Assembly: GCA_000182565.2 (NCBI GenBank)
Contig: KQ257457.1
Length of the DNA stretch: 64,000 bases
Source: Spizellomyces punctatus DAOM BR117
Lineage: Eukaryota
Reading direction: 5' to 3' (one strand)
The notes beneath the pieces are model-generated. The model was given only the letters and a program-made list of their open reading frames with translations. It searched no databases and had not been told where the DNA came from. Of the stretch, positions 6,674 through 64,000 are shown in pieces. How positions within the stretch are numbered: position 1 is the stretch's first letter; each line of letters starts with the position of its first letter. The translations under genes were made by a program, and so were the position numbers.

Positions 6674-7422
6674 TGTAACAGGCTAGCAGGGACAAGAAGA
6701 CAATAGAAAACTAGGGAAGACTTAGTTACTACTTGTTATTTTCCTTTTGAGGGGCCTCAGAGAGGTCCTCTTTTTATAGACAAAGGGGCTGACAAATGCT
6801 ATATCCTAACTACCCAATCAGATCTCGCCCACATCATCCTAAACTATTTGTCAGCCTATTGCACCATTTGCAACCAATTAGAACTCATACATGTCATCCT
6901 AAACTATTTGTCAGCCTATTGCACCATTTGCAACCAATCCGATCTTATACATGTCATCCTAAACTATTTGTCAGCCTATTGCACCATTTATNNNNNNNNN
7001 NNNNNNNNNNNNNNNNNNNNNNNNNNNNNNNNNNNNNNNNNNNNNNNNNNNNNNNNNNNNNNNNNNNNNNNNNNNNNNNNNNNNNNNNNNNTTGGGCCAG
7101 ATATCCACCCCACGAAGGATATGTGGGAATCAGAGGAAGCCCTAACAGAGGCTGTTTTTTTGCTTCCCGCCTCGTGTTGGGGAACCCCGCAGTCGAGCCA
7201 AGTGGCACACGGAGCTGGGCGCCCTCTTTTTCTGGGTTTTTTCATGTCAGCAACTATTCTGACCGCTGCTTCACCACTGTTGGTGGCCTTGCTGTAGGGG
7301 TCCACGATGTGGTTTGTGAGGGGCTGGCCCACCGTGTAAGGTTTCGGAGCATTGACTCCCAGCCAAAACTCATGCCCTGGAGTCTGCAGCGGCGCATTGG
7401 GGTTGGTCCGAAGCTGATGAAC

Positions 7423-18954: not shown

Positions 18955-19384
18955 CTCCCACTCAGTGAATCATCTGATTTCCGACAGAGACCCATTTTAC
19001 CACAAAATCAGAATGATCACAGATGCGTGTGGGAATGATTTAAAGGGGTAAAATCATCATGTAAGCACTCTTAGAAGGTCTGGAAGGTTTGTGACGATCT
19101 AGATCTTCAGGTAATGTTTGCCAAGGCATGGCTGAAGCTGCTGAGCACTGCTGAGCACTGCTGAGCATGGCTGAAGCATGTAAACAGTAAACAAAGGCGG
19201 AGGGAGGCTGGAGAATGTACTGGGTTATATAAAGGGGACTTTTGCACGTCTCTGAATTAATACAACCGTGTTATCCCACAAGTTACTGCACCCAGAAGTC
19301 TTACTAGCGGCCACAGGCATTACTAGGTCTTCCAGAAGTGATTTCTACACGGGAAATCAGTGTTCCAAGCGCTAAGTTTCAATA

Positions 19385-19396
19385 GGTTATGAGCCC
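19385..19396 (+). promoter_or_regulatory. Copia primer-binding site of the half-tRNA-iMet type
   Basis: GGTTATGAGCCC directly after the LTR, similar to the GGTTATGGGCCC PBS of copia-type elements that prime from the 5' half of initiator tRNA-Met. Confidence 0.8.
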
Positions 19397-19563
19397 TGAT
19401 AGCTATCACTGATATTTTCCTGCTTCAAATCTCTTTTCTGACGGCCACACCATCTTCCTGACGGACCTATCTTCTTCCCAACCTCATATTTGGACCACCT
19501 ACCACACCAGGACGATTTCACCTCTTCTCCAACAGCACATCCACTCACCAAATCAGCTCAGAC

Positions 19564-44830: not shown

Positions 44831-47045
44831 TGTAACAGGCTAGCAGGGACAAGAAGACAATAGAAAACTAGGGAAGACTTAGTTAGTTACTACTTGTTAT
44901 TTTCCTTTTGAGGGGCCTCAGAGAGGTCCTCTTTTTATAGACAAAGGGGCTGACAAATGCTATATCCTAACTACCCAATCAGATCTCGCCCACATCATCC
45001 TAAACTATTTGTCAGCCTATTGCACCATTTATAGCCAATCACAAGTGAGACAAGTCATCCTAAATACACTGTGCCACTTGATTGAAAGGGGCAGATGCCA
45101 GTGTGTCAGAATACTCATCTAATTTGGCCAGAAATGGCTAAATCTGCTTATTTATCTAATTCTGGTCAAATGAATGCTGACACCATCAGCAAAGTCATGT
45201 GACCACTAGTTTGGAACCACATCTAAGCAGTATAACCATAGCACTGACAGAAGAATTCTGTCACACTCCCCCACTTTAAGATTAAGCTCCCTTCTGGGCT
45301 AGGAACTCCTTCAAGATTTCTCTGCCATGGGGTAGGAGGTTTTCTTCTGGTTCCCAGGTGTTCTGAGAGGAGGGATAGCCTTTCCACTTGATGAGGTAGA
45401 GATTCTTCTTCCTTCTGGTCTTGTGGTCAAGAATCTTCTCAACTTCCCAAAACTCTTCTCCTTGCTGGATAATTGGCTCAGGCTCAGGGGGTACTGGTCT
45501 GGTAGGGAAGTCCTCTGTGGGGTCCAAGTAAGTCTTGAGGAGTCTGACATGGAACACTGGATGAATCTTCATGGTGCTGGGGAGCTCCAGGGTGTAATTC
45601 TGAAATTCATCCTTGGCCTTGATTCTGTAAGGTCCAAGCCAGGGGTGAAGAAGTTTCTGGGCTGGCCTCTGGGCTTCTTCTTCTGGGGTGATACCTTCTC
45701 TAGATAGCCAAACTTTGGAGCCTAGGGGGTAGCTTGGGGCCTTGTTGAGAGACTTGTTGGCTTGCTGAACTTGTCTTTCTTGGGCCAGTATCATGTTATC
45801 CTTGGCTACTTGAAGCAGTTGCTGAATATACTGGTGGAAGTCTGTTGCTTCAAGATCATTGCTTTCTCCTGGTGGTGTTGCTGGGGTCCTGGGATGCTGG
45901 CCATTCTCCAAGTAGAATGGGGTAAAGCCTGTGGTTTCTGAGATACTGTTGTTGTAGGCAAACTCAGCAAAAGGGGAGAAGATCTTCCCAATTCTTCATG
46001 TTGTACTCCAGGAAAGCTCTGAGGTAGATCTTCAAAGTCTTGATGGTTCTCTCTGCCTGTCCATTGGTCTGCTGGTGCCTTGCAGTGGCTAGGAGGGTGT
46101 TGCAGCCTAAGAGTTGCATCAAGTTGGACCAGAACGAACTGGTGAACTTGGTGTCTCTGTCTGATACAATCACTTCTGGGAGGCCATGGTGCTTGAAGAT
46201 ATGCTTCAGGAAGAGCAGGGCCAGGTCCTTGGCTGAGGCTCTGGTGGTACTGGGGATGAAGTGGCCTCTCTTTGACAATCTGTCAACAATGACAAAGATG
46301 GCATTGTGATCAGAGGAAGTCATAGGTAGGTCAGGGATCAGGTCAATGGAGATCTGGCTCCATCTGGTCTTAGGTACTGGGAGGGGCTGCAGCAAGCCTG
46401 CTGGTGGTTGCTGACTAGGTTTGCTTCTCTGGCAGGAATCACAAGACTTGACATACTTCTTAATGTCCTTATACATCCTTGGCCAGTAGTAATGCCTTGC
46501 TAGGGCATCATGGGTCTTGGTGATGCCAAAGTGTCCAGCATATTGAGTGTCATGGGTTTCTTGGAGTAGGCTCAACCTTAGGTCTGGGTCACCAGGAACA
46601 AAGATCCTGTCCTGGAAATAGAGTAACCCATCTTGATGGCTGAGGTATTTGAGCCTTTGTTGCTGGTCTTCTGGTCTCCTGGGGTCATCCAAAGCTTGGA
46701 TGAGCTCTTGAAGTTCTGGGTCTTCTGTGGTACTGGTCTTCAATCTCTCTTGAAGGGTGCTGGTGGTGTGGGTCACAGCATTCAACTCTGCTGTCACCAA
46801 GGCCTTGCACTTGATGCATCTTGGGGCCAGGTCTGGTCTTCTAGACAGGATGTCTGCCACTGTGTGGAGTCTTCCTGGGCCATAGCCAATCTCAAAGTCA
46901 AAAGATTGGAAATTCATGACCCATCTGGCTTGTCTTCTGGTCAAGAAGGGCTGGTTCTGTAGCCACTTGAGGGACTGGTGGTCTGAGATAACTTTGAAGG
47001 GGGGTTCCTTCCAGGTAGGGCCTCCAAACTCTGAGGGCATCATGG
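44831..47045 (-). mobile_element. Gypsy family Y (3' LTR 44831-45265, RNase H end, integrase, chromodomain), cut by Copia at 47045/47046
   Basis: VISDHQSL..RRQARW; HDT..AGHFG..CDSCQ; SIDLI, VSDRD, NGQAER; frameshift near 45970; chromodomain ending at 45282. Confidence 0.93.
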
Positions 47046-49476
47046 TATTGAAACTTAGCGCTTGGAATACTGATTTCCCGTGTTGAAATCACTTCTGGAA
47101 GGCCTAGTAATGCCTGTGGCCGCTAGTAAGACTTCTGGGTGCAGTAACTTGTGGGATAACACGCTTGTATTAATCCAGAGACATGCAAAAGTCCCCTTTA
47201 TATAACCCAGTACATTCTCCAGCCTCCCTCCGCCTTTGTTTACTGTTTACATGCTTCAGCCCACTTGTTTACATGCTCAGCCGTGCTCAGCAATGCTCAG
47301 CAGCTTCAGCCATGCCTTGGCAAACATTACCTGAAGATCTAGATCACCACAAACCTTCCAGACCTTCTAAGAGCGCTTACATGATGATTTACCCCTTTAA
47401 ATCATTCCCACACGCGTCTGTGATCATTCTGATTACTCTATGTCCAATTCCCCACGTTGTAACTTAGCCAAATCAGATGTGAACTGTCTAATGACATCCC
47501 AGCATGATCTCACATGATTTATAGATCATACAGCGTGGTTTAAGCCTGAATCTCAACACTCCCACTCAGTGAATCATCTGATTTCCGACAGAGACCCATT
47601 TTGCCACAAAGTTTAAGGTGCTTTGTCTTGGGTAAAGCCTTGGTGAGAATGTCAGCTGTCATTTCTTCTGTCTGACAGTACTTGAGGCTGATGTTCTTGT
47701 CTTCTACTGCTTGTCTGATGAAGTGGTGCCGCACATCAATGTGTTTGGTCCTTGCATGATGTGTTGGGTTGTTGGCAAGTGCTATGGCGCCCTGATTGTC
47801 ACCATACAATGTTGTAGGACCACTTTGCTGATGTCCTAGTTCGCCTAGAAGTGTTCTGAACCAGATAACTTCCTTGGTAGCTTGACAAAGAGCCATGTAC
47901 TCTGACTCTGTTGATGATAGAGCGACTGTAGGTTGCCTCTTGCTTTGCCAGCTGACTGTGCTGCTGCCAATCTTGACTAAGAAGCCAGTGGTAGACTTCC
48001 TGAAGTCCAAATCACCGCCCCAATCTGCATCAGAGTATGCAGATAGCTCCCACTTGCTCTGAATGCCGCCCAGTTGAAGTCCTAGGTCTGTGGTGCCATT
48101 CAGGTACCGCATGATCCGTTTGACTGCATCCAGTGCTGATGTCCGGGGTTGGAAAGATACTGGCTAACTGATCCAACTGCTGCTGCTATGTCTGGTCTGG
48201 TGCCCAGCATTGCATAAATGAGACTTCCAACAGCACTTCTGAAAGGAACCCCATTCATTTCTTGCTGTTCTGCCTCAGTTTGTGGTGACATGGCCTTGGT
48301 GAGCTTCTGGCCATTCTCTAGTGGTGTGGCAACTGGTTTGCTGTTACTCATATTGAATTTCTTCAATGTTTGACCGAGGTACCGCTGTTGGGAGAGCCAG
48401 ATTGACCTGTTGGCTCTGTCCCTGACCACTTGAATGCCGAGAAAATGCTCTAACTGGCCCATATCAGCCATCTTGAACCGCTTCTTGAGTTCTTCTTTGA
48501 GTTTTAACAACTCCTGGTTGTCCTTTGCTGCCAGAATAAGGTCATCCACATACAGGATAAGGTGGATGCCCATCTTCTTGTTGATGTACAGCCCGTGGTC
48601 TGATTCACACCTTTCAAAGCCAAGTTCTTTGAGTTGCCCATCAATGACTTTGTTCCAGGCTCTTGGAGCTTGCTTTAACCCATACAAACTCTTCTTTAGC
48701 TTGCAGACAAGTCCATTTGCCATGGTGAAGCCTTCTGGTTGGTCCATGTAGATGTCCTCCTCAATGGTCCCATTCAAGAATGCTGTCTTGACATCCATTT
48801 GGTGAATCTCCATGTCCTTCATGGCTGCTAGTGTCAGGACCGTCCTGATGGTTGCAAACTTGACTACTGGGGCAAATGTCTCCTTGTACTCCAGTCCTTC
48901 AACTTGGGAGTATCCTTTGGCTACCAGTCTGGCCTTGTAGCGCTCTACAGAGCCATCTGACTTGAGTTTCAGCTTGAAAACCCACTTGCAGCCAACTGTG
49001 GATCTTCCTGGTGGTAGTTTGACTAAGTCCCATGTCTGATTCTCCATCAGAGAGTCATATTTTGCTTTGACAGCCACCTCCCACTGTTTGGCATCATATC
49101 TGGTCCTAGCTTCAGTCAGAGTGCTGGGTTCTTCCTGTGGAACTTCCCCAATGGTGAAGGCAAACGCCAGATTTGACTGAGTTGGCTTTGCAATCCACCA
49201 CTCTCCCAGTGGTTTGTGAAATCTGGCACTCTTCCTGCTGAGTTCTGGCACTTCCTCAGCATCCTGGAAGTCGTCCCGATCATCTTCTGATGCTGAAGAG
49301 TTGTCTGGAGTGATGCTAGATGGTCTCTGAGTCTCTTGAACCGTCCCTAGCCCTTCTTGGTCATCCAAGAACGAAGGCTCCCCTCCTAGAGGCATCTGTA
49401 GCTCTTGGTCTTGCTGTGGTACACTCTGCAGTCACTGCTGAGTGCTCCACATCAAGTTTTCATCAAAGATGACGTC
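47046..49476 (-). mobile_element. Ty1/Copia copy D (3' LTR 47046-47558, RNase H, RT), interrupted by the viral element
   Basis: Near-identical to copies A/B; Copia sequence stops at ...AAAGATGACGTC, where the other copies continue CCTTGACATG. Confidence 0.93.
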
Positions 49477-49521
49477 TGATACAGTGCAGATAAGCCGTAC
49501 GGCTTATCTGCACTGTATCAG
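49476..49521. repeat. Perfect 46-bp palindrome at the element terminus (44 bp TG...CA if the shared C at 49476 belongs to the target)
   Basis: CTGATACAGTGCAGATAAGCCGT|ACGGCTTATCTGCACTGTATCAG; 23-bp arms, no loop, no mismatch. Confidence 0.97.
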
Positions 49522-49632
49522 CCGGCTTATTTATGATTATAAGCTGGCTTATTATTCTATATACCCGGCTTATTATATATTACATCAGCCCGGCTTATTA
49601 TATTTAAACGCCCACTCCATATTTAAACGCCG
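49501..49632 (+). repeat. Subterminal iteron-like direct repeats
   Basis: GGCTTAT at 49501, 49524, 49546, 49567 and 49592 (spacing 21-25 bp), then two ATATTTAAACGCC copies. Confidence 0.85.
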
Positions 49633-49745
49633 TGTCAATTTAACTCAAACGTGGTTCTAACCACTCGGACCCCATCTCGAACACACCAATTTCGAATAGT
49701 TTTTTCCCTTCATACTTTGCCAGCATTTTTTCCATGATTGCCCCA

Positions 49746-50234
49746 TCATGTGCTTTCGAATCCTCCTTCAGTTACTGATACACACGACACCTTCAGTCTC
49801 AATACATTCCGTTGCATGCGATAGATGGCGGAAATCTGTGTCACCTGGTCTTCCGTGTATCCGGCATTCATTAGCTCCTTCTTGATATCGTTTGTAAGCG
49901 CCCCCAACTTCTCCTCTACTAGCGATGCCACATACATATTCGAGCCATCTTCACCAATGATTGACCGGATACCTAAGTCCACCATCTTCCTTTCAATCGC
50001 CTCCTTACTCCGTCGATTCCCTGTTACTATCTTTTGGTACTTCTCATTGTCAACCGTTAGTTGGTAGAATCTCTTAATGTCAAACAGCTCCTCTCCACTA
50101 GCTCTCCTTATCAATTTCTGAGCCGCAAGGCGACTCAGCGCGCTCGAAGGAGCACTGTCCATGGTTAATCGATGCCGTGTGAATCGCTCATAATCGTAAT
50201 TGTTTTGGTGGGCAGGGGAGGGACATTGAACCAT
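49746..50234 (-). CDS. Hypothetical viral protein (162 aa)
   Basis: Intronless ORF in the viral element; no recognised motif; contains an in-frame double-hairpin element. Confidence 0.55.
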   Translation of the reverse strand: MVQCPSPAHQNNYDYERFTRHRLTMDSAPSSALSRLAAQKLIRRASGEELFDIKRFYQLTVDNEKYQKIVTGNRRSKEAIERKMVDLGIRSIIGEDGSNMYVASLVEEKLGALTNDIKKELMNAGYTEDQVTQISAIYRMQRNVLRLKVSCVSVTEGGFEST

Positions 50235-50639
50235 CGACTTTATGCAAAAACTTGGACTTGCTATTGATAGTTGCTTTTCCCACTTTACATCAGCAGATTA
50301 CTACACGTACGACTCACGTGATGCACCTTCCTAATATGGTAATCAACTATCGATAGATTCACTTTGCAAAGCAATTCATGTGATTTGCCATGTCCCAGAC
50401 ATGTTAGTCCCCCGATCATGACTCAGCTTCAGTTAGCCAATCTTGATCGTAATTCTTTAAATACAGCTTTGGTTTCCGAGGTCGCCTACGGCGAAAGTAA
50501 AGGAACATTCAATGGCCACACTACGCGTCCTCGCTTGAGCCTGCGCTCAGCGCGCTCCGAAGGGAGCGCTGTCCTTCATAAGTGTGGAGTCAGACGGTGT
50601 AAATGAAAGTGAATGGTGACTCGATTCCGCATATACTAA

Positions 50640-51130
50640 AATTAGGGGGGCCTGTTTGGGGGGCCTGTTTTNNNNNNNNNNNNNNNNNNNNNNNNNNNNN
50701 NNNNNNNNNNNNNNNNNNNNNNNNNNNNNNNNNNNNNNNNNNNNNNNNNNNNNNNNNNNNNNNNNNNNNNNGCCTCTCCATATATGATTTAGCAGCTAAT
50801 CCCCGTCGAGTCAACTTATCGAGTGATAAAAAGGGGGGCCTGGGGGGCCTGTTTTTTGGACATTTGGGGTCTACAGAGATGTTCTACTAAAGTAAAAATA
50901 GGAATAATGTGTTTGTTGTTTTTTACTCTGCTTTTTTCATTCCAAACAATCTACTTTCGAAAAAACAGGCCCCCCAAGCCCCCCCTAAAAAACAATGAAT
51001 TATACTACATATATCTACTCCATATATTCTCTCTTTTTTCATAGCTCTCTTCATACATCGAGTAAAAAAAAACAGGCCCCCCACATGCCCCCCACATGCC
51101 CCCCACGCCCCCCTAAAAACAATCAATTAT
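50640..51130. repeat. Direct and inverted G6/C6-tract repeats (GGGGGGCCTGTTT / AAACAGGCCCCCC) downstream of the primase-helicase gene; spans an N-gap
   Basis: G-tract units at ~50644-50671 and ~50833-50857; complementary C-tract units at ~50960-50990 and ~51064-51120. Confidence 0.8.
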
Positions 51131-51145: not shown

Positions 51146-53956
51146 TCACTCACGCAATCGGATTCCTATGTAAAAGCGAGTTCCCTTGATTTTCTTTTCC
51201 TTCAGAACTGAACTAAGTTCCTTGTGAAATTGATTTGCACTAAGTGGTTCTTTGGTGCTCCCGAAGAATTGTATGTAGTAATGTTTGTACAATTCCTTTT
51301 TTTCAACTCGATTGTTCTTCATATCCGTTTGGTAATCTACCAGCATGTACGTCTTCTCCAGCCATTTTGCGGCGCTTAGACTGTTCATCAGGTTCCTCTG
51401 TGTAAATTCCATCACAGCAGGAGGGGTTTCTATTTCGAACGCCGATGGTATCCCAAAGAAAGTGGTATAATATTCGAAAAGCATTAAGATGAATTCGTCC
51501 CTGTAGGCGGGTGAGGAGAACAACCGCTTAAGTGACCTATCTATGATTTTTCTCGAAGTTGGGCTGTCCTCCGTTTCGTCATCCGCGACTTCATCTCCTT
51601 CATCTTCATCTCCTTCCTCCTTATTATCTTCATCAGCATCATCGAAGCAGAATGGATATTCCTGCACCCGAGCGTGCATTGCAAGGGCACGCTCCACTTT
51701 GTCAAACTTGATGTCCTCGTTCGTTTGAACATTAAGGAGACCAGTGATGGGAAATGATATGGGTTTTCCATGCAATGACCGGACCGTTTGTCGGTCATCA
51801 CCGGACGACCAGCGTTTAATGATTTCTGCTATAAAATAGTCACCAGGACTAGTCTCGGAAGTGGATAAGTACCTCTTGCCAAAACAGTTGTACAACTGAG
51901 CGTTGGGAGCATCAACGGTTGCACTTTCCATCGTTAAATTCTTCTTGTCAACCGCATAATAGTATCCCCCAAATGCCTGGTCAATCAAAGTATTTTCTGT
52001 ACCTTTTCCATTGCGACCTCCCCCCTTCAACACCATGAAGATTTCGTCCACAATTTTACCATAGAGGCAGCGACACACTATGTGGAAGCGATAGTTTACC
52101 AGGTCACGAGAGGGAAAGATGCTTTCATAGAAAGAGAGAATATGTTCGCGTATCTCTGGGTTGGTTTTTCTCGGATATGGATAACCACAGGTGAAAAGGA
52201 TGTAATCATCGGGTCGAATATCTCGAAACGTACCTGTGTTCAGTTCATATACGCCATCTGTGAAGGCAAATAGTTCTGGTTTGGAAAGGAAGAGGTCGAT
52301 GCATTTATCGTTTCTCGGTTGCAAACGGTCAACATTTTTGGCCACTTGCACTGAAAAGTTGTTCATTTCAATATCGCGACGGAATGATGCCAAGAGGTCT
52401 TGGAGCAATGAAACATTGGTCTCTTGACCATCATCATCGGCATCCTGGATGAGTCTCTGAAAGTCGGCAATAAGGGTATCGGCGACTTGAAGATTAACAT
52501 CGCTATCTGCAATGTTTTCTTGCTTATACCAGATATTGTCTTTTCCAAGGATAAAGCAGATTCCGCTGGAATGCTTGAAGATAGTGTCTTTCTTGATCTC
52601 CACAAACCATTCAGCGGTGTTCTTGTGGGTGGGAACCAACACTCGCCGAAAATCAAACCTTTTCCATTGCGGAAGGCGACGCAACTCATCAATATCCAAT
52701 TCTTCCCTGGCGTCTCTCTTTCTCTTCTTCGGCTGTTCGGCAATAGGTTCTTCATTCACTTCAGGCGGAACAGTTAGATGGAATTGGTCGAGGAAACTCT
52801 GAGAAAATTCCATGGGCTTCTCGGACAATCGGATGGAGTAACCGGTTTCTGCCAAGATATATTGTTCGCATTCATGCAAGAGGTTGACGTCAAACAATCT
52901 ATCAGTTCCAGGCTTGCGTCTGACCTGAATTCCATCATAAATCAACACATCCACAGAATATTGGATATCGGTGAAAAACTCGTGCATCGACCACATGATA
53001 CAATTTTCGACGGTGTGGTAAACGAGGCTAAGGAACGACCCAGCACGATTCTGCTTCTTACGTGAAGTCCTCAGCCAAATATCAGGAAACTGTTTTTGGA
53101 GAAGCGGCACCAGTTTTTGGTATACGAAGGAGTGAATGGCAGCGACTTGCTTGTTGAAATTGGTGGCCTTTTTTTCACAGTTAACAATTGCTATCATGTC
53201 TTGTTTGTTCATCTTCCATTCACTCAATAATGTGTCACGATTTTCAACGTAATCATCCAAGTGGGGGCAGAATAGGTTATTTGATTTGCTTAGTTCCCTT
53301 AATACAGTGAATTGAGCATTAACCATATCAAGATCATGGTACTCGTGTCCGCAAAGGTAAGCACGGAAAGGGAAGGTACGAGCAGGGGTCCCTTGAAGTG
53401 AACTAGGGTTTACCTTTTCACCGTCGTCATTGTTCAAATGGAAGCAACGACATTGTGCATATAAACGTCCGATGCGTAAATCACGGTTATTCTCTGAAAA
53501 GTTATACTCCACATGGTAGTCGTTGGGGCCAACCCGTCGTTTTTTGAATGAGCGGAAAAATCTTTTGTATTCTTCAGATACGTAGGGAGAGTTCAAGATT
53601 TCCCTCAATCTAGCATCCGACACGAATTCAAACTTTTCGATGGGCAGTTGCATTTGTGCAGATTGAGTGACCGTGGGTATATCACTGTTATCAACAGGAA
53701 AGAGCAGAGGGTCGTGACCAACTTCGTTATTATCCTCGATGTTCTCGTTCGTTTGCTTTTCGGTTTTAATTTTCTTTTTATCAGGTAAGGATGGTGGCGC
53801 CTTGGTTTCAACTCCCTTCTTGTGCTTCTGGGGAGTGAATGTACCATCGGCGTCAACAACAAAAATTTCTTCTTTCGCATCTTCAACAATTAACAAAGGT
53901 ATATTTTTGCGAATCGCAATGACTTTAGGCGCTTTCTTGCTGGATTGAGTTTGCAT
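51146..53956 (-). CDS. TVpol (PolA-family-like primase/polymerase) fused to D5_N and a superfamily 3 helicase (936 aa)
   Basis: IGRLYA..SSLQG..RAYL..YHDLDMVNAQ (motif A), HTVEN, VLIYDG (motif C); D5_N LFAFTDGVYEL..FRDIRPDDY; Walker A GGGRNGKGT, Walker B LSTSE, IIKRWSSGD, motif C LNVQTN. Confidence 0.88.
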   Translation of the reverse strand: MQTQSSKKAPKVIAIRKNIPLLIVEDAKEEIFVVDADGTFTPQKHKKGVETKAPPSLPDKKKIKTEKQTNENIEDNNEVGHDPLLFPVDNSDIPTVTQSAQMQLPIEKFEFVSDARLREILNSPYVSEEYKRFFRSFKKRRVGPNDYHVEYNFSENNRDLRIGRLYAQCRCFHLNNDDGEKVNPSSLQGTPARTFPFRAYLCGHEYHDLDMVNAQFTVLRELSKSNNLFCPHLDDYVENRDTLLSEWKMNKQDMIAIVNCEKKATNFNKQVAAIHSFVYQKLVPLLQKQFPDIWLRTSRKKQNRAGSFLSLVYHTVENCIMWSMHEFFTDIQYSVDVLIYDGIQVRRKPGTDRLFDVNLLHECEQYILAETGYSIRLSEKPMEFSQSFLDQFHLTVPPEVNEEPIAEQPKKRKRDAREELDIDELRRLPQWKRFDFRRVLVPTHKNTAEWFVEIKKDTIFKHSSGICFILGKDNIWYKQENIADSDVNLQVADTLIADFQRLIQDADDDGQETNVSLLQDLLASFRRDIEMNNFSVQVAKNVDRLQPRNDKCIDLFLSKPELFAFTDGVYELNTGTFRDIRPDDYILFTCGYPYPRKTNPEIREHILSFYESIFPSRDLVNYRFHIVCRCLYGKIVDEIFMVLKGGGRNGKGTENTLIDQAFGGYYYAVDKKNLTMESATVDAPNAQLYNCFGKRYLSTSETSPGDYFIAEIIKRWSSGDDRQTVRSLHGKPISFPITGLLNVQTNEDIKFDKVERALAMHARVQEYPFCFDDADEDNKEEGDEDEGDEVADDETEDSPTSRKIIDRSLKRLFSSPAYRDEFILMLFEYYTTFFGIPSAFEIETPPAVMEFTQRNLMNSLSAAKWLEKTYMLVDYQTDMKNNRVEKKELYKHYYIQFFGSTKEPLSANQFHKELSSVLKEKKIKGTRFYIGIRLRE

Positions 53957-54789: not shown

Positions 54790-55032
54790 ATGTTCTGTAG
54801 TACATCCGGATTGACCAATGTTCTTGTGACACTTTTTGTTGTAGTCGCCATAACTTGTTATGGCTTGACAGAATTGATTAATTGGACAGATGGTTATAAA
54901 CAACGCCTGGTCTATCAGGAAAGATACCAACAGAAAGAAAACCTGCGCGATGCATTGGAAATCTTGGAAGACGAATTTGAATGTTATTGCAAGAACAGAA
55001 ATCCCACATCAGATGACGCGCTAGCCGTGTGA
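54790..55032 (+). CDS. Small single-pass membrane protein (80 aa)
   Basis: N-terminal hydrophobic stretch VLVTLFVVVAITCYGL; its stop codon is the first TGA of a double-hairpin element. Confidence 0.5.
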   Translation: MFCSTSGLTNVLVTLFVVVAITCYGLTELINWTDGYKQRLVYQERYQQKENLRDALEILEDEFECYCKNRNPTSDDALAV

Positions 55033-55396
55033 GCCGCCGCAAGGCGGCGACTCAGCGCGCTCGAAGGAGCGCTGTGAGCGCTGTAAACGAGATTATGATC
55101 AGTAAACATGTCCGGAACATGATAAATCACGTGCATTCTCCTCGGCACGAGACTAAACTGCCTGGCGAGTAACAAGACCGACCGACGAATATCATAGTTA
55201 TTGTTTTTAAATCTGGTTGATTCAGACTGTTCTTTAGGCTTTCTCAGACAGCGCTGAGCCGCCGCAAAGGCGGCGACTCACCCAAAAGAAAGCACAGGTC
55301 ATGGTACTGACCGAACAATAAGAAAGTACCACCACAGCTCCTTCGAGCACATCGAGCTGCGCCGCAAGGCTTCACAGCTTTTAAAATTGATATAAA

Positions 55397-55852
55397 TCAC
55401 AGATACATCAAAGTAAAGTTTGTCAAAGGATGTCTACACATAGGACATCTACGACTATTTTCTTGGTTTGAGTTGTAGTAATCGACGAAACAACGTGCAC
55501 ACATATGATGTCCACACTCAAAGATGATGGGAATGTTATTCGCATCATTGTAGCTTTCGTAGCATATCAAACATTTCAACTCTGCCCCTGCAAATGTCCT
55601 GTTTTCTTCCCGAAGCCTTTGAGCAAGTTCTTCAACCCGTACTCTCAGATCCGGTTCATGCAAATGCAGCTCTTCCATAGGAGGTCTGTTTTCATCTAGA
55701 GCCCAGCGCATAGCACTATATAGTCCCCTGATGGTCATTCCACGAGTTCGTGCGATCAGGCGACAGGAAGTGAGATAGTTCCACTTCTCATCGTCATTCA
55801 GTCTGTTGAAGTGGGCTCTGCCCATGTGATATATCTGCTGAGCAGTAGGCAT
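55397..55852 (-). CDS. RING-finger (C3HC4-type) putative E3 ubiquitin ligase
   Basis: CLIC..ECGHHMCARC..RCPMCR. Confidence 0.88.
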   Translation of the reverse strand: MPTAQQIYHMGRAHFNRLNDDEKWNYLTSCRLIARTRGMTIRGLYSAMRWALDENRPPMEELHLHEPDLRVRVEELAQRLREENRTFAGAELKCLICYESYNDANNIPIIFECGHHMCARCFVDYYNSNQENSRRCPMCRHPLTNFTLMYL

Positions 55853-55950: not shown

Positions 55951-56042
55951 AGCTACGCATACAACATGAAACTACGGATACAACATGAAACTACGGATAC
56001 AACATGAAGCTACGCATACAACATGAAACTACAGATACAACA
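55951..56042 (+). repeat. 19-bp tandem repeat (~4.7 copies) between the divergent RING and recombinase genes
   Basis: Unit CTACG(C/G)ATACAACATGAA(A/G) starting at 55953, 55972, 55991, 56010 and 56029. Confidence 0.92.
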
Positions 56043-56129
56043 GACAGACTATCAATAAAGATGAAATAAATTTCTTATATTAAGTGATAAACCGGCTTAT
56101 ATCCTTTAGAATACAAATCAGCCCTGAAA

Positions 56130-57110
56130 ATGGAACAACACAATACCGAATCTGCTCTCTATGATACTCTATGTAACATCCTTAACAGGATCAACCAGTC
56201 TGCAAAAACCACGAAAAATGACAAGTCGCGCCTAAACCAACTCAAAAGCCATAATCTTCTTTCATTATTCGAAACGCCTCAGATACTTATTTCGACGATT
56301 AAGGAAAAATGGCCGAATGACAATACGAAGAGCAACTATATCAAACTCGTATCGAAACTATGTCGTAATGCTAAAAAGGGGGAAAAGGCAATGATCCTTC
56401 ATCTAGCAGAGGATGCAATGGACGACCTTGATGGTCATTTTACGGACACATTCCACTCTCACTTCAAGAATGTGACATATGAAAAAGTCAAACAATTCAA
56501 AACTCAGGCTGCATCCCAAGAGATGACCCAGGAAGATTTCGCAAATTATGTCCCTTACAGCGAACTCTTAGCAGGATTGAAAGTGGCTCTCACATTCATT
56601 AATGAACAAAATATAGTGGAGCATCAATTTCTAATCGCGCTTGGGATGAACCTGGACGCTGATAAGATTCGTTGTAATGATATTTTCAAAGCGATGATCA
56701 GCGAAGACGCTAATGTTACGGTGAACAATGAAGGGAAAACTGTCTTCATCCGAAAATGCAATAAGACTGGTGAAAAGAATGTCCTTATTCAGATGGGAGA
56801 CACCATTCAACCATACGTTAACATGTTAGCAAATGTTAGAAAGGCCAATGAGCAAACGCGTCTGTTCCTGAAACCTGATGGAAGTATCCCCACCGATGCC
56901 TGGTGTAGTGACGAATTTGCTAACGCTATGGAACGAATCTTTAAAAAGCGTGTAACTCAGAGACGAGTTCGAATTTCAATGGGCATTTATCTTTCTGAAA
57001 AAGACAATGGAGACCATGCGTACCAAAAATCAATCGAGCACAGAATGGGTCACACATACGAAGTCCATCAACGCTATTACAATTTGTTCAAATCATTTAA
57101 TGCAAATTAA
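56130..57110 (+). CDS. Tyrosine recombinase of the PLV/virophage (OLV11-like) type
   Basis: Catalytic order R (KIRCND), K (CNKT), RxxR (QRRVR), H (RMGH), Y (HQRYY); helical N-terminal core-binding region (NTKSNYI). Confidence 0.75.
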   Translation: MEQHNTESALYDTLCNILNRINQSAKTTKNDKSRLNQLKSHNLLSLFETPQILISTIKEKWPNDNTKSNYIKLVSKLCRNAKKGEKAMILHLAEDAMDDLDGHFTDTFHSHFKNVTYEKVKQFKTQAASQEMTQEDFANYVPYSELLAGLKVALTFINEQNIVEHQFLIALGMNLDADKIRCNDIFKAMISEDANVTVNNEGKTVFIRKCNKTGEKNVLIQMGDTIQPYVNMLANVRKANEQTRLFLKPDGSIPTDAWCSDEFANAMERIFKKRVTQRRVRISMGIYLSEKDNGDHAYQKSIEHRMGHTYEVHQRYYNLFKSFNAN

Positions 57111-58426
57111 TGACTGTTCTCAAAATCATTCACACTGTCCCTCGCCCCACGCATAAGTTCACTTCTTGGCTCCCATGTAGCCTGGTCACGGTCATATCCT
57201 CTCCATAAGACGAGGTATTCAACTACTTGTCTTGAACCGACTCGACGTGTCCGCTTATCAAGCAATGCTTCCACTTCATACTCACCTTCTGGTACTTCCT
57301 CTTCATCCCCTTCAATTTCAGGCTCAACTTGTGGAGTTTGTCCATCATCCTCTTTTGGAACCAAACGCAATTGCCAAGCGGGATACACTCCTGGCAGCGG
57401 ATGATCAGAATTGACAGCACTCCTTCGAGCGTGCTGAGTCGCCGCAAGGCGGCTCACAGGCTTAATTTTATAACTGCCCATGTAATTGGGGTGGGGATTT
57501 GGAACAACGGCTGTTATTTCATACTTCTCTTCTGAAAAGTAACCGAGCTTGGCCCGGCGTTTTATATCTGTCCCCTGTCCTGATATATACTTTCTTACAA
57601 CATCGCCCACACTGAATGGAGGTAATACTTTCACCCCTCTTCCTTTCGTGCGCAGCGCACGTTGGGCTTGAGCCGCTCCTTGGATGTCTGCCTCCATCTG
57701 TTGCACAGTACGGAGTTTCTTCCCAGAACCGAAACTTACGGTAGAATTTATGTTCTCCACAATCTGCGGTAACATGGTCACCCAATCTCTGTTTCCCAAG
57801 CGCATCCCCATGAACAACGCTCGCTTTATGGTGCCATTCATCCTTTCGACCTGTCCATTTGTTTGAGGTGAGCCGGCCTTCGAATACCTCCATTCTATGC
57901 CATGTGTTTCTGCATACTGTGAAGTGATACCTTGAAACTCGTTTCCATTGTCGCTTTGAATACCATGGATTTCGACACCATCCTCAATGAGGTTTTGTAA
58001 AAAGTTAACGACACTTTGTTGCCGTGTATCTTTCAAGGCTTTAGCGTAAACGCGTTTAGTTAAAATATCAACCGCAACTGCTACATATTTATAGCCATTG
58101 TATGGGACGCTAATCATTGAAAAAAGATCGAGTTGAAGTTGTCCTGGGCTACTTGATAATATAGGACGGATGCCACCCTTGTTTGTCAATGGTCGAGACC
58201 AGCGTTGCCAGATCGGTTGCTCTTTCAACCATGCTAATAGTGTCCGTTGGGAGATATTGCTCTCAGGATACTTTGCTTTGTAGAGTGCCCAGAGCCTGTC
58301 TCGGCCCATGTACGCATGCTCTCTATAGTAGAGCTGCCTTAAACGCCGCTCATCCTCTGGTGTGATCTCTTTCCAGTAGTTCTTCCTTTGATCCATCTTA
58401 TCAATAAGAATCAGCTTTAAAAACAT
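57107..58426 (-). CDS. Retroviral-type (rve, DDE) integrase with C-terminal chromodomain, Polinton-like; true start possibly the second Met (MDQRK)
   Basis: LQLDL (D), IQSDNGNEF (D), NGQVERMNGTIK (E); SH3-like FSVGDVVR; chromodomain EYEVEALLDKR..EYLVLWRGY..ATWEP; no adjacent RT or gag. Confidence 0.92.
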   Translation of the reverse strand: MFLKLILIDKMDQRKNYWKEITPEDERRLRQLYYREHAYMGRDRLWALYKAKYPESNISQRTLLAWLKEQPIWQRWSRPLTNKGGIRPILSSSPGQLQLDLFSMISVPYNGYKYVAVAVDILTKRVYAKALKDTRQQSVVNFLQNLIEDGVEIHGIQSDNGNEFQGITSQYAETHGIEWRYSKAGSPQTNGQVERMNGTIKRALFMGMRLGNRDWVTMLPQIVENINSTVSFGSGKKLRTVQQMEADIQGAAQAQRALRTKGRGVKVLPPFSVGDVVRKYISGQGTDIKRRAKLGYFSEEKYEITAVVPNPHPNYMGSYKIKPVSRLAATQHARRSAVNSDHPLPGVYPAWQLRLVPKEDDGQTPQVEPEIEGDEEEVPEGEYEVEALLDKRTRRVGSRQVVEYLVLWRGYDRDQATWEPRSELMRGARDSVNDFENSH

Positions 58427-58883: not shown

Positions 58884-61800
58884 TTAAGGGCCGAGTTCAG
58901 TGATTTTGATGAGGGTAACGTCTGTGGTATTATCGGGAGCAGCCTGATTGATACTAAAATTTGTGAAGTAAGCAACGTTATCGGCCATCCCTGTAACAAT
59001 GAATGCGGCAGTGATTGTACGATTGACCCCCGAATTAAAGTTAAAGTCGCTCGAGTACACGAGAGGCATCGACCCAGCGCTTTGGCCGAGAAATATTGAC
59101 AAAGTACCATTTGAATTTGCTGTGCCATGGAGGTTGAGCGTCCACTCCATAAGTACCTTGCCAGGTGTTGAAACATAGAAGACCTTTGAGGCATTGTTGG
59201 ATTGCCACATGTCTTTAGTCAAAAGTTTGATAACTTGAACATTTCTTAGAAATGTTTGACTGGCAACCCATGGTTGAGTAGCACAAACCTGACCATTGCT
59301 ATAGACAGCACCGTTCGAATACAGATTCCCTCCTGCAACAACATGTGCATTAACCGCAACTCCTCCATTGACAACCAGAGCACCAGTTGTACTCGATAAA
59401 GCTGGAGTGGTGCTTTCAACGACAACATTTCCTGTCGACAATGTGATAGTAATACCCTTTGCTCCCTGTGCTTGCAGTCGCACTGAACCTGCATCATTCC
59501 TCACCATAAACATCGAGGCGCCTCCGTCCACACTCCTATTGTTTCCGTTCAAAAACATAACAGCAGAACCTGCTGCATTCTGGAAGTATTGGATGGCACA
59601 ACTATTGCTACCAGAGTCGACGTTTTTAAGAATAATAGCCCGTAGCCCATTAAGTGGCGAACCAATAGTTAGATTACTGGATGAGATGAGGTCTCCGGTG
59701 TAGGTGTTAACTGAGAATCGGCTATTCCATGTTCCAAAGGTATCACTGGAATAATGACCGAATTCATAATGACGTTGGTCTATGCTATCAGACGAGCTGG
59801 TGAGGTGGATGTGAAGGGCATCTCCGGAGTTGTTGTAGGAGATAGTGTAGTCACCTTTCGTAGAGGGAGTGTCACTTCTCAACTTGAAATATCCACCTGT
59901 AGAGGCGGCTATGAGAACTTTTCCTGTAATGTTTCCACCTGAGAAGATACTTTTAGAAACCCCTATTCCTCCTTTAACCTGTAGAGCACCACTTGATATG
60001 GTTGTTGCCTCGGATGTATCATTAGCAAGAATTGTATTTGCCGACAGATTACTAGAAGATGTTATAACATCTTGTTTCGATGTTTGCAGTGCTGATATGC
60101 TGGGGGCATAGTCGACAATGTTTAAAATACTTCGAATGGAAATATCATTCACAAGGGTAAATCCTTGGACATCATCTCCCATGACAAACATGTTCGACAT
60201 TGGACTCATCGATGCAAGGGAATCGAGTAAAGGACTTGCATTTTGCTTCCCTGAGATGTCGACATTGGTAATGCCTAATATTGTCTTCACCTCTTCAGGA
60301 GTTTTCACCGAGAATGATGTAGCAGAACTCCCAACAATAAATGAATTCGCTGATAATGCAAGACCACTTATAGACGATAATAGTGGACTCGATGCCTGTT
60401 TATTAGCAATGGCCATCCCTACATAACTCTCGGTTGCAAGTTTGAGATTATTGGAGAAAATGTCTCCACCGATGTACAGCATTTTAGCGACACCTAAACC
60501 TCCTGATACCTGCAATGCGCCCGTTATAGTCGACGATGAGTCTGTAGTCGAAGTGATTGCAATGGTTCCATTGGCTTTGAGGATGAATTGATGGGCGCTA
60601 GTTCCATAGTTATAAAACCCGAGGCTCCCATTGGTAAGTATACCTGTTCCATTAGTTGCAGCGTGGTATATACCCCAAGAATTACTCGAAGCAGCATTGT
60701 TACTAATCAGAACGGCCGTAGACGCTGTGGCACTTGAAGGCGCATTGATGACTATGGCAGCCGGCTGCAATCCTCCTCCACCTGCTCCTAGGGTTAGAGT
60801 TTTTCCTATGCCGACTCCACCTGATACCTGGAAAGCACCTGTTGTCATACTAGTTGAATCGGTTGTGTTTGGTATCTGTGTTACGCCTGTATTGGAAACT
60901 CTCAGAACGAAGCCTGTATTGTTATAAGAACTATTTAGACCGAATCCGCCTGCTGATAATGTTCCGTCTCCTGTGCTTCCGGCAACTCTCATGCCCCATG
61001 TAACATTACTCCCAGTATTTACTAAGGACAATGTTGTAGATGCTGTGCCATTTTGAATGGTTATACCCCCGCCAACAGTGGCACTGTTAAATGATAGCGC
61101 AGTCGATGAGGTAATAAGAGGTTGATATGAGGAAAGTATATTCGATGTAGGAACAACTGAGAACCCTGTGGGTGTTCCCATGATGAAAGTGTTAGCCGCC
61201 GGCGTTAAACCGCTGATAGAATCGAGTAACGCAGACGCACTTTGTTTAGTAGCAAGTGCTGTATCTGCGGAGGCCTTGTTATTCTGAACAAGTGTTTGAA
61301 GCGAAGTCAAGGATTGACTAAGAGGACTTGTCATGCCGGTCATTGTAGCGACACTCCATTGTTGCGTAGCCACTTCGACTCCATTTTGAATGATCAGTCC
61401 TTCAACATTTAGATCATGTTCAACAAGTAAGCCACCTGTCAAGAGTCCATTGCCTACATTATCTACTCGAAACACTATATCTGAGGTGCCTTGGACAAAT
61501 ATTCCACCACTCGTTGTTAGAGAATTAACATTCAATGCAGACGATGTAGTAAGAAGAGGTTGGAATCCCCCTAGAATTGTAGAGACAGGTGATACTGTAA
61601 AGCCCCCAGCAGTTCCCATGACGAAGGAATTCGGTGTCGTTGTTAAACCACTGATTGCATCGAGTAAAGGACTGGCATTTTGCTTCGTAGCAATGGATGT
61701 TGTTAGAGAACTTTCAGTAGCCAATTTCACTCCATTTGTGTATACATCCCCTCCAACGTACAGTGATTTAGCGATGCCAACTCCACCTTTCACCTGGAAC

Positions 61801-63992
61801 GAGCCGGATGTTGAGGAAGTAGCATCAGTTGTCGTATTGATAATAACATTCCCAGATGAGAGAATATCCAGATTCGAAGCCGTTGCATTATTTGTACCAA
61901 TACGCAAATTACTAGCGGAGGCTCGAATGATGTAGTCTCCAGCAACTGAATTTGTTACCCATTGACCTGCTGTTGCTGTATATCCGAATGATGCATTGTT
62001 TATTTGAAAGGCGGCAGCCGCTGTAGTAGATATAATAGCATATTTTCCCATGTACACTGTGCCTTGGACTCCTAATCCACCGGCAACCTGTAATGCACCT
62101 GTCGTTGTAGAGGATGCATCATTTGTTGCATCCAGTGTAACGATTCCAGTGTTCGCGAGTATTGTCAGTCCTCTAGCGGTCTGTGCTTGAAGCCGAAGGT
62201 TACCAATATCGTTTCTCAACGTCATTGTGTTAACGCCTCCATCCACACTCCTATTGTTTCCGTTCAAAAACATCACTCCATTACCTCCAGAGGCCGTTAG
62301 ATAAAGAATTGAACAAGCATTCGTCCCTGTATTAGTATTGGTTACAACTAGTGACCGTAGACCGCTAACAGAATTGGCTCCTCCGACGGTTAGGTCACCG
62401 CCAACAAGGCATGAACCATTAGTGTCCACTCTTAGACCTAGAGTAGGCGTGCTAGATGTTCTTGGATAGATAAACATTGGTGAATCCTGAGCACCCAGCC
62501 ATGTAGAGGCGGATGGGTTAAAACCAAGAAACCCTGCCCCATCAACCCCAAGCCATGTTGATTTTGAGCCGTCAAAATTACTTGAAATAAACACCGATGA
62601 TTGTCCTGTTGCAGAGGCTGTAGTTTGCAGACGTGTGCCTGTTATCACTTTGCCTGAAACATTACCTCCAAAAGTAATATTATTCGAAGTTAATGCCGTT
62701 ATCTGGCTTCCAACCCAAGGTTTGATGACTTCGGTATCATAATCCCTTAACATCGAGAGGTTGATCGCGGCTTGGGGGTATTCATATTTGATGGTGCGAT
62801 AGCAACTCGGTACATCAAATAGTAATCGAGTACAGCCTCCAATCGGGTCTGAAGCAATTGCCACATTGCTTCCAGGCTCTAAAGGCGGCATGAAGGTAAC
62901 AGGGTCGACTGGTTCGTAAACTGGATTTCCATCTCCATCGAGTATAGGTTGGCCTTCCGCATCTCGTTGAACCTTACGTTCCCTCTGACCACCGAAAATC
63001 ATTCCCCAAGGAAACGTTGAGACGATTGGGAGGATGGAGTTTACAGCCATGGGAATCGTCAGTGGTGGAGATACCATCGCAGGAAATGGAATAGTAGTCA
63101 GCGGTGTGGCCCCACTAAGAACAACAACATTCCCACCAGGGACATCAGTTTTTAAGATTTCTGCGGCGTCAGACTGTTCCGTATTATCGGTATCCCTTTG
63201 TTTCGATAACGGCGTAGGGTCAATGAGAGTGAAATTGTACAAAGGATAACTGCCGGATATGAGGAGATTTGGGCTGTTACTTACGAATTGTGGAGGAATC
63301 ATGTTGTACTGAATGGTATTACCAACAACGACCACACTTCCGTATGAATTGGTCGAGCCAACATAATTACCTCTTAAGGTATCGCCTACTCGAAGAATCG
63401 TATCACTTCCTGAAAGCGAACATGAAATCAGATCGCCACTAACTTGCACACCATTGATACCTCGGAGGTTGGTTGACAGAATGGCACCATTCTTCTGGAG
63501 TCCAATTCCCGCAGCGATGTTCGAACTGAGAACACCGTTGTTGAGAGTTAAATCGGGCTGTTGGGCTGTGAGAGATAACCTGAAATCATTTTGCACCCTT
63601 TGGATACCATTGGAGGCGGTAAACGTATCGCCTATGGTCCCGCGGCTGAGCATCATTAAGCCAGAGTTGGCATCAACTTTTAGATCGAGTTGAAGGTCAT
63701 TCTGTACTCTCTCGATACCATTGCTACAAGTCAGTACGTCTTTAATGGTATCTGCTTTGACCATTTGGAGACAACTGCCAGCCTCGCATTTGAGAGAGAG
63801 CACCACATCATTGGTCGTTCCCGGTCTAATGGAGACGCCATTAAAGTCCTGAAAAATGTAGCCACCTGTTAACTGGTTTCCTACAATCCGAACTGTTTGG
63901 TTATCAACGAGCACCCCGATTTCACGTCGTCCACTAAACTCTGGTCCGACAGCAATGGCCCCGGTTTGGCTGCCTTGGTAAAAATTGGCCAT
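58884..63992 (-). CDS. Large virion fibre/spike-like protein (1702 aa) with shaft-type and GALQVxGGxGV repeats
   Basis: N-terminal ~15-aa beta-spiral-like repeats (ASNGIQRVQNDFRL, AGIGLQKNGAILS, GINGVQVSGDLIS); six TDxxSxTTG(A/S)(L/F)QVxGG(V/L/I)G-type modules; repeated KQ(N/S/A)xSxLL modules; rich in S/T/G/N. Confidence 0.65.
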   Translation of the reverse strand: MANFYQGSQTGAIAVGPEFSGRREIGVLVDNQTVRIVGNQLTGGYIFQDFNGVSIRPGTTNDVVLSLKCEAGSCLQMVKADTIKDVLTCSNGIERVQNDLQLDLKVDANSGLMMLSRGTIGDTFTASNGIQRVQNDFRLSLTAQQPDLTLNNGVLSSNIAAGIGLQKNGAILSTNLRGINGVQVSGDLISCSLSGSDTILRVGDTLRGNYVGSTNSYGSVVVVGNTIQYNMIPPQFVSNSPNLLISGSYPLYNFTLIDPTPLSKQRDTDNTEQSDAAEILKTDVPGGNVVVLSGATPLTTIPFPAMVSPPLTIPMAVNSILPIVSTFPWGMIFGGQRERKVQRDAEGQPILDGDGNPVYEPVDPVTFMPPLEPGSNVAIASDPIGGCTRLLFDVPSCYRTIKYEYPQAAINLSMLRDYDTEVIKPWVGSQITALTSNNITFGGNVSGKVITGTRLQTTASATGQSSVFISSNFDGSKSTWLGVDGAGFLGFNPSASTWLGAQDSPMFIYPRTSSTPTLGLRVDTNGSCLVGGDLTVGGANSVSGLRSLVVTNTNTGTNACSILYLTASGGNGVMFLNGNNRSVDGGVNTMTLRNDIGNLRLQAQTARGLTILANTGIVTLDATNDASSTTTGALQVAGGLGVQGTVYMGKYAIISTTAAAAFQINNASFGYTATAGQWVTNSVAGDYIIRASASNLRIGTNNATASNLDILSSGNVIINTTTDATSSTSGSFQVKGGVGIAKSLYVGGDVYTNGVKLATESSLTTSIATKQNASPLLDAISGLTTTPNSFVMGTAGGFTVSPVSTILGGFQPLLTTSSALNVNSLTTSGGIFVQGTSDIVFRVDNVGNGLLTGGLLVEHDLNVEGLIIQNGVEVATQQWSVATMTGMTSPLSQSLTSLQTLVQNNKASADTALATKQSASALLDSISGLTPAANTFIMGTPTGFSVVPTSNILSSYQPLITSSTALSFNSATVGGGITIQNGTASTTLSLVNTGSNVTWGMRVAGSTGDGTLSAGGFGLNSSYNNTGFVLRVSNTGVTQIPNTTDSTSMTTGAFQVSGGVGIGKTLTLGAGGGGLQPAAIVINAPSSATASTAVLISNNAASSNSWGIYHAATNGTGILTNGSLGFYNYGTSAHQFILKANGTIAITSTTDSSSTITGALQVSGGLGVAKMLYIGGDIFSNNLKLATESYVGMAIANKQASSPLLSSISGLALSANSFIVGSSATSFSVKTPEEVKTILGITNVDISGKQNASPLLDSLASMSPMSNMFVMGDDVQGFTLVNDISIRSILNIVDYAPSISALQTSKQDVITSSSNLSANTILANDTSEATTISSGALQVKGGIGVSKSIFSGGNITGKVLIAASTGGYFKLRSDTPSTKGDYTISYNNSGDALHIHLTSSSDSIDQRHYEFGHYSSDTFGTWNSRFSVNTYTGDLISSSNLTIGSPLNGLRAIILKNVDSGSNSCAIQYFQNAAGSAVMFLNGNNRSVDGGASMFMVRNDAGSVRLQAQGAKGITITLSTGNVVVESTTPALSSTTGALVVNGGVAVNAHVVAGGNLYSNGAVYSNGQVCATQPWVASQTFLRNVQVIKLLTKDMWQSNNASKVFYVSTPGKVLMEWTLNLHGTANSNGTLSIFLGQSAGSMPLVYSSDFNFNSGVNRTITAAFIVTGMADNVAYFTNFSINQAAPDNTTDVTLIKITELGP

Positions 63993-64000
63993 GTAATCTT

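Follow-up and report, generated by a model that had tools for sequence, protein, structure and literature searches.

A perfect terminal palindrome with phased iterons at the left end of a virus-like element integrated into a Copia retrotransposon of Spizellomyces punctatus

The host junction and the palindromic terminus

The stretch of DNA analysed here, 64,000 nt of contig KQ257457.1 from the chytrid fungus Spizellomyces punctatus DAOM BR117 (assembly GCA_000182565.2; hereafter the window), contains a Copia retrotransposon interrupted by a virus-like element, and the subject of this report is the left terminus of that element, a perfect palindrome followed by an array of phased iterons. The element is visible for 14.5 kb and continues past the window end at 64000, so that only its left end is described. 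The features at the terminus are as follows.

48100..49476, minus strand: interrupted Copia, with an RVT_2 reverse transcriptase open reading frame (ORF) at 48100-49395 (Pfam RVT_2, E 1.9e-79)
49471-49476: GACGTC, the final six Copia bases, candidate target-site copy
49477..49520, no strand assigned: 44-bp perfect palindrome at the terminus, 5'-TG ... CA-3', with the dyad lying between 49498 and 49499
49501..49598, plus strand: array of five direct GGCTTAT iterons at 49501, 49524, 49546, 49567 and 49592 (spacings 23, 22, 21 and 25)
49539-49552: small second inverted pair, ATAAGCTGGCTTAT
49600..49631, plus strand: two exact 13-nt repeats, ATATTTAAACGCC, starting at 49600 and 49619, 19 bp apart
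50672..50771: 100-N assembly gap within the viral element

The boundary of the integrated virus-like element lies within Copia and can be placed to the base by comparison with three intact Copia copies in the window. In the alignment, homology of the minus-strand Copia to these copies stops at 49476; the 27 nt ending GATGACGTC are common to all four copies, and past the breakpoint the three intact copies continue with CCTTGACATG, whereas the interrupted copy enters the viral insert, whose first bases, directly after the break at 49477, are TG. An earlier note on this DNA, made from its letters, had placed the stop of Copia at GACGTC and the start of the insert at the palindrome, and the end of homology at 49476, with the three intact copies running on, bears this out.

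The palindrome reads TGATACAGTGCAGATAAGCCGT followed directly by ACGGCTTATCTGCACTGTATCA, with no loop, and it adjoins the host junction, beginning at the first base past the Copia break; C49476 and G49521 extend it to 46 bp. Its centre, CGTACG, is flanked by inverted ATAAGC/GCTTAT, and at the tip the other strand terminates in CA-3'. The outer TG...CA are the bases used by retroviral-type integrases. No longer palindrome occurs in the window, where the runner-up measures 18 bp, and across 200 block shuffles the longest palindrome was 12-26 bp, with 26 bp reached in one shuffle. The 26-nt palindrome centre has a single occurrence in the window, and any match to it was found in 0 of 100 shuffles. 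As single-stranded DNA, 49477-49640 is predicted to fold at -32.5 kcal/mol (z -6.7), a value equalled by 0 of 200 shuffles, the tip forming a stem of 20 bp with a loop of 4 nt.

The array of iterons is not separate from the palindrome. The first direct GGCTTAT sits within the inner palindrome arm and one inverted copy, at 49490, within the outer arm; because the inner arm carries the first phased iteron, the palindrome is composed of a repeat unit that belongs to the element itself. The motif CGGCTTAT has seven matches in the window against 0.57 expected, five of them within 49490-49598, and the longer CCGGCTTAT, which accounts for three of the five terminal iterons, has four against 0.21 expected. 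GC content is 0.36 in 49521-49640, compared with 0.44 in the element and 0.48 in the remaining window. The loop-less perfect palindrome with TG...CA ends and the GGCTTAT repeats about two helical turns apart in AT-rich DNA, both described in the earlier note, are thus what the letters give: 49477-49520 reads as such a palindrome, and five iterons follow one another at 21-25 bp in DNA of 36% GC.

The public run X1 was consulted as Logan contigs, in which 0.31 of the sampled words were present. Word depth in this run is 0-5 for the element (about 2-fold coverage) and 55-76 for Copia, about 25 times that of the element, and at 49476 a single loose end is informative, the one where the intact Copia copies run on. 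One X1 contig (depth 3.1) adds 12 letters past 49638 and resumes at 49606; this variant of 49606-49638, which has the subterminal repeats with an extra unit, could be the right terminal inverted repeat (TIR) or a second copy within one organism.

The interrupted Copia is itself part of a young retrotransposon nest, at 8850-24900 and 45280-49476, in which identity is 98-99% among the three full Copia copies and between them and the interrupted copy, and in which Ty3-type integrase/chromodomain fragments also occur. An inverted-repeat pair (21631-22979 and 48128-49476) joins the interrupted Copia to another Copia copy. The remaining window consists of ordinary eukaryotic genes (Nramp, DnaJ, APP1) with nested Copia and Ty3-type elements.

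Gene content and relatives of the element

Rightward of the terminus, long intact ORFs extend up to the window end.

49746..50234, minus strand: ORF162, 162 aa, no family, adjoining the terminus
51146..53956, minus strand: D5-type primase-helicase, 936 aa (Pfam D5_N 1.4e-8; PHROG DNA primase 9.2e-30)
55397..55852, minus strand: RING-finger protein, 151 aa (Pfam zf-RING_2 9.7e-9)
56092..56100, plus strand: fourth and only non-terminal CCGGCTTAT in the window, 29 nt ahead of the recombinase ATG
56130..57110, plus strand: divergent tyrosine recombinase, 326 aa, Cre/Xer-like catalytic domain at residues 130-326
57107..58426, minus strand: 439-aa rve integrase, chromodomain at the C-terminus (Pfam rve 8.9e-12, Chromo 7e-13)
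58884..63998, minus strand: fibre-like protein of at least 1702 aa, in which the element leaves the window

Judged by its modelled fold, the 326-aa protein is a member of the tyrosine recombinase superfamily. An AlphaFold (AF2) model from a five-sequence alignment (pLDDT 69) gave only tyrosine recombinases among the Foldseek matches listed (Tn1549 integrase, Cre, XerA, XerH and lambda Int; best E 1.7e-3), and residues 130-326 align with Cre/Tre at Z 12.0 (root-mean-square deviation 3.3-3.7 over 171-180 residues). Across VIA-align and Foldseek together, the matches listed were Cre, Xer, Tn1549 and lambda-type integrases and type IB topoisomerases; protelomerases were absent from this limited set. 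R181, K212, R281, H308 and Y316/Y317 are invariant in all five sequences, the catalytic roles of these R..K..R..H..Y residues being assigned by order and spacing. In Pfam the window recombinase matched no family at all at E up to 10, Phage_integrase (PF00589) and the protelomerase families included. An exhaustive profile search returned 58 relatives, of which 34 were scanned against Pfam, leaving three already in the alignment and 21 others, mostly short pieces; among the 34, Phage_integrase appeared below its cut-off of 27.1 bits in two (P0023, 24.7 bits; P0019, 16.5 bits) and a SAM-like N-domain match in one. The closest relative is S. punctatus SPPG_08458 (83% identity), and a Powellomyces hirtus protein shares 34%. 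No close S. punctatus homologue of the window primase-helicase was present among the matches returned.

The metagenome scan gave one syntenic relative, L001, a Joint Genome Institute (JGI) contig, of which 16,830 of 20,008 bp (84%) were examined. Its gene order is that of the element (primase-helicase, recombinase, integrase with chromodomain, fibre), followed by a packaging ATPase (Pox_A32, 3.8e-11), with identities to the element of 27% for the primase-helicase, 34% for the recombinase and 36% for the integrase; D100, D159 and E194 of the window integrase are invariant between the two. The L001 fibre (1573 aa) has a Peptidase_S74 chaperone and an adenovirus-fibre N-terminal match, and the window fibre-like protein has repeats of the form T-D-S-T-S-x-T-T-G-A-x-Q-V-x-G-G. 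In the L001 sequence examined, the primase and fibre are the only ORFs above 500 aa. A 489-aa ORF of L001 was considered as a capsid protein, i.e. a major capsid protein (MCP), and rejected: it is rich in proline and lysine and has three relatives and no PDB match. A DUF5901 match in L001 was below threshold.

No protein-primed DNA polymerase B (pPolB) was found among the ORFs of the visible 14.5 kb or in the 16,830 bp of L001, and because L001 has no further ORF above 500 aa, such a polymerase is unlikely, on sequence grounds, in the family to which both belong. The in-window part of the element has no capsid-module gene (MCP, minor capsid or A32 ATPase), and Pfam scans of the visible ORFs gave no HUH Rep nickase, poxvirus-type resolvase or protelomerase family. 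An rve integrase, which the element encodes, is a criterion for Polintons/Mavericks, as are long TIRs with target-site duplications of about 6 bp, and a primase-helicase as replication gene, which it also encodes, is one for Polinton-like viruses (PLVs). S. punctatus carries a published integrated PLV (Bellas and Sommaruga 2021, PMC7805220, in its available text), and diverse PLVs are described as present in chytrid genomes in the available text of a preprint (bioRxiv 10.64898/2026.06.19.733378). Because of its gene content and its synteny with L001, together with these two reports, the insert appears best named an integrated PLV of chytrid fungi rather than a strict Polinton. The view of the earlier note that this is no standard Polinton end is retained.

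Several further observations concern the genes and repeats of the element. ORF162 was tried as a winged-helix-like protein and this was dropped, the fold matches being of low confidence (template-modelling score about 0.3). The window has one copy of the palindromic motif CTATCGATAG (0.03 expected), at 50347-50356, 113 nt upstream of the ORF162 ATG, and L001 has four between its genes (76-98, 3886-3908, 13317-13339 and 15410-15432); the motif is a candidate for a promoter or regulator box shared by this group of PLVs. A 19-nt tandem unit (CTACGGATACAACATGAAA; 4.7 copies, 55953-56042) lies upstream of the recombinase gene and its CCGGCTTAT box. A GC-rich 22-nt sequence is found three times in the element, at 50132-50153 (plus strand; antisense in ORF162), 55049-55070 (plus strand; intergenic, before the RING gene) and 57419-57440 (minus strand; in frame within the integrase gene), two copies being exact and one having two mismatches, with 0 expected; GC-rich hairpin-like repeats at about 55030-55375 surround the copy before the RING gene. 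The fibre gene holds an 18-bp perfect palindrome at 60056-60073. One X1 contig differs from that gene (59903-60211) at 27 of 309 bases while adjacent contigs are identical, which suggests that the X1 organism has another fibre gene or PLV copy that has diverged.

Scans of IMG/VR were made with queries of several kinds. The primase-helicase protein returned nine stretches and the recombinase and integrase alignments 134 and 157, respectively, and none of these was confirmed. The 26-nt palindrome centre had no match; its 18-nt core had one, a short hairpin in a 64.5-kb contig, which is at chance level; and the iteron pair had 42, about the number expected on a rough estimate, the two inspected being proline-rich coding repeats. 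The primase alignment led to a single distant locus, L002, and a query with the L002 primase to seven loci. L002 (4,019 bp) opens with a TG...CA fold-back, with arms at 1-30 and 59-88 that are 97% complementary, and within 1-540 has ten iterons (GCCTACAC/GTGTAGGC) in AT-rich DNA, followed by a DUF5906 primase-helicase gene. This fold-back was tried as support and rejected: the contig ends of five relatives with primases 67-69% identical do not fold back, and these relatives have no match to L002 1-250. L002 is therefore not counted.

Interpretation of the terminus

The insertion is an ordinary integration event at a real, well-delimited viral terminus. We put at about 0.55 the probability that 49477-49640 is a terminal control region at the left end of a young chytrid PLV which its own rve integrase inserted into Copia, and at the same value the joint proposal that the palindrome is present also at the right end, that the integrase uses its CA-3', that synthesis is primed by snap-back and that the iterons recruit a viral protein. 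What counts in favour is the exact Copia break, the TG start, a palindrome and iterons far beyond chance, the palindrome's make-up from the repeat unit, the strong hairpin predicted, the long intact ORFs of the primase-helicase, tyrosine recombinase and rve integrase, the synteny with L001, the published PLV of S. punctatus and the 83% identity of the recombinase to SPPG_08458.

In our working model, the virus would be inserted into Copia by its integrase through CA-3' ends. In the linear form each 3' end would finish ...GTATCA-3'OH and could snap back on itself into the predicted stem of 20 bp and loop of 4 nt, and the folded end would then prime DNA synthesis in the style of a rolling hairpin. 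Because a primase-helicase is encoded and apparently no protein-primed polymerase, another route to completion of the ends would be needed, and fold-back priming appears the most likely. The GGCTTAT iterons, which follow one another at roughly two helical turns in AT-rich DNA, with one inverted pairing across the dyad, are putative binding sites for the viral primase-helicase, recombinase or integrase, and the bound protein may mark the end as an origin, as a synapsis site or as both. The right end would carry an identical palindrome inside a TIR, its terminus being predicted to read ...CACTGTATCA / ...CTGCACTGTATCA, then (G)ACGTC, then Copia CCTTGACATG.

A number of points weigh against this account. 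A single end of a single copy stands behind the claims about the TIR, the target-site duplication (TSD) and conservation of the palindrome, and this terminus has a 100-N gap 1.15 kb away and, as its immediate neighbour, a Copia present in many copies. The primase alone could start strands without a hairpin, and the palindrome could serve the recombinase instead. In the 16,830 bp examined, L001 lacks any palindrome that reaches 16 bp, and a terminal fold-back is likewise absent. The start of that contig is probably not a genome end, because a promoter-like CCTATCGATAGG box at 76-98 faces outward; the CCTATCGATAGG box recurs between L001 genes and faces outward like the window's CTATCGATAG upstream of ORF162. 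Finally, the IMG/VR scans yielded no relative with informative ends.

The first alternative to be weighed, which we consider unlikely, is that the palindrome is a recombination site of the Cre/Xer-like tyrosine recombinase, so that fold-back priming would not be needed. On this account the inverted ATAAGC arms would flank a symmetric 6-bp spacer, CGTACG, the direct GGCTTAT copies would be accessory sites, and identical sites at both ends would permit excision, circularization or resolution of replication dimers. The enzyme has a Cre-like catalytic domain (Z 12.0) with invariant R/K/R/H/Y residues, an arm-spacer-arm geometry can be read in the sequence, and the sole non-terminal CCGGCTTAT, 29 nt ahead of the recombinase ATG, hints at autoregulation by an iteron-binding protein; moreover, dimer resolution at TIRs has been suggested for PLV recombinases (PMC11296320, in its available text). 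However, the host junction falls exactly at the TG/CA edges, where an rve integrase would be expected to place it and a spacer crossover would not; full symmetry of the site leaves recombination without a direction; the upstream box is just one 9-mer, and the chance that such a box falls within the element is about 1 in 20; and, according to the available text on Cafeteria elements, the likely task of their second integrase is insertion into the genomes of giant viruses (Hackl et al. 2021, PMC8547959).

It is also possible, though we think it improbable, that the genome ends are closed hairpins with their apex at the dyad centre and that the outer 22-nt arm was made at integration, by a nick 22 nt from the apex followed by unfolding, as in long P-nucleotides or parvoviral terminal resolution. 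A loop-less perfect palindrome would be the residue of a resolved or unfolded hairpin, and it ends at CA, where by the general rule for such enzymes an rve integrase could nick. In one version of this account the hairpins would be formed by a protelomerase-like activity of the encoded tyrosine recombinase. At 326 aa, however, the recombinase is much shorter than known telomere resolvases; no protelomerase family matches it at E up to 10, and protelomerases are absent from the fold matches listed. The analogy with protelomerase substrates drawn in the earlier note thus found no support, the matches being to Cre, Xer and Tn1549 with no protelomerase in Pfam, and we do not claim to have excluded it. 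Palindromes that lie reproducibly inside TIRs, as described in the available text on Halocafeteria elements (bioRxiv 10.64898/2026.07.28.741278), also favour an inherited feature over a scar.

Least credible is an assembly artefact, in which the scaffolded assembly would have been folded back or wrongly joined where a repeated Copia ends. In its favour, the window has four N runs (6992-7091, 13547-13743, 24493-24592 and 50672-50771, the last 1.15 kb rightward), X1 has Copia at a word depth about 25-fold that of the element, so that joins at Copia edges are error-prone, and perfect palindromes break de Bruijn graphs. Against it, the arms of just 22-23 nt are below the usual length of fold-back artefacts, the Copia join falls exactly at TG, at the base where the three intact copies diverge, the inner arm is in phase with four further iterons, and the same type of end is reported from long-read-checked elements of another host in the available text of the same preprint.

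Comparison with other termini and significance

Self-complementary termini solve the end-replication problem in parvoviruses and adeno-associated virus (AAV), in poxviruses and in phage N15 (telRL/TelN), and a hairpin end, once extended into duplex, is a perfect palindrome (compare PMC1185569, PMC8956199 and PMC12624138). The terminus described here resembles those of these systems in being self-complementary, and differs from them in that it is also predicted to be the substrate of an rve integrase. Of the features of protelomerase systems it has the perfect palindromic site, and of those of rolling-hairpin replicons a terminal palindrome predicted to be able to fold back.

A much closer parallel was reported in July 2026, when terminal palindromes beside target duplications were described in endogenous virophages and PLVs of Halocafeteria (bioRxiv 10.64898/2026.07.28.741278). 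In the available text of that preprint, these palindromes are tied to non-pPolB replication genes and RVE integrases, they lie reproducibly inside TIRs in elements checked with long reads, and they are proposed to fold into hairpins from which replication is primed, as in parvoviruses and poxviruses. As in the virophages and PLV subtype 4 of Halocafeteria seosinensis, the palindrome of the window stands at the extremity by the host junction of an element with non-pPolB replication and an RVE integrase, and the terminus fits the Halocafeteria class on every testable feature, in a comparison that rests on one end here. There are also differences, again within the available text: the host is a fungus and not a stramenopile, the palindrome measures 44 nt compared with 52 nt in the figured Halocafeteria subtype, an RVE integrase is found together with a tyrosine recombinase in Halocafeteria virophages only and not in its PLVs, whereas both are found here in a PLV, and the phased iterons of the window have no counterpart mentioned there. 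A fold-back or hairpin reading of the terminus is plausible in that it would fit this anatomy and would match the model proposed for Halocafeteria.

Other published elements share parts of the arrangement, as far as their available texts describe it. The published S. punctatus PLV is likewise integrated in the nuclear genome of a chytrid, and TIRs with 5-7 bp TSDs are reported in the same paper for elements with a tyrosine recombinase or an RVE integrase (PMC7805220). The mid-GC endogenous mavirus-like elements (EMALEs) of Cafeteria burkhardae also have TIRs and short TSDs; they differ in being mavirus-type virophages of stramenopiles, and the words 'palindrome' and 'hairpin' have no occurrence in the main text (Hackl et al. 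2021, PMC8547959). For entomopoxvirus-associated PLVs an 'end module' of TIR, tyrosine recombinase and primase-helicase has been proposed, in which the genes for replication and recombination stand together at one end by a terminal repeat, as in the window, and the recombinase is suggested to act on the ends; these PLVs differ in their insect/poxvirus hosts, and the available text describes no rve integrase or terminal palindrome for them (PMC11296320). In the literature surveyed, no further terminal palindromes were described in PLVs or virophages and none for fungi.

A bolder hypothesis, to which we give little credence, is that of a fungal double-stranded DNA virus with rolling-hairpin replication whose rve integrase doubles as the nickase of terminal resolution. 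As part of this joint claim, the CA at the inner edge of the hairpin form would be, by symmetry, the CA of the integration 3' end, and the Cre-like recombinase would close, circularize or excise the genome through the palindrome centred on CGTACG. If this were true, one recognition sequence would serve both replication of the ends and insertion, which would be a new coupling of linear-end replication to integration in eukaryotic viruses.

The association of a palindrome with a non-pPolB replicon and an RVE integrase, reported from one protist, is extended by the present terminus to fungi, and this newly known terminal architecture now includes a fungal PLV with TG/CA edges, phased iterons and an iteron box at the recombinase gene. 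Spizellomyces punctatus is culturable and transformable. With its TG/CA edges, the iteron array joined to it and a gene set both young and intact, the terminus offers a concrete substrate for the question of how PLVs and virophages that have no protein-primed polymerase replicate their ends.

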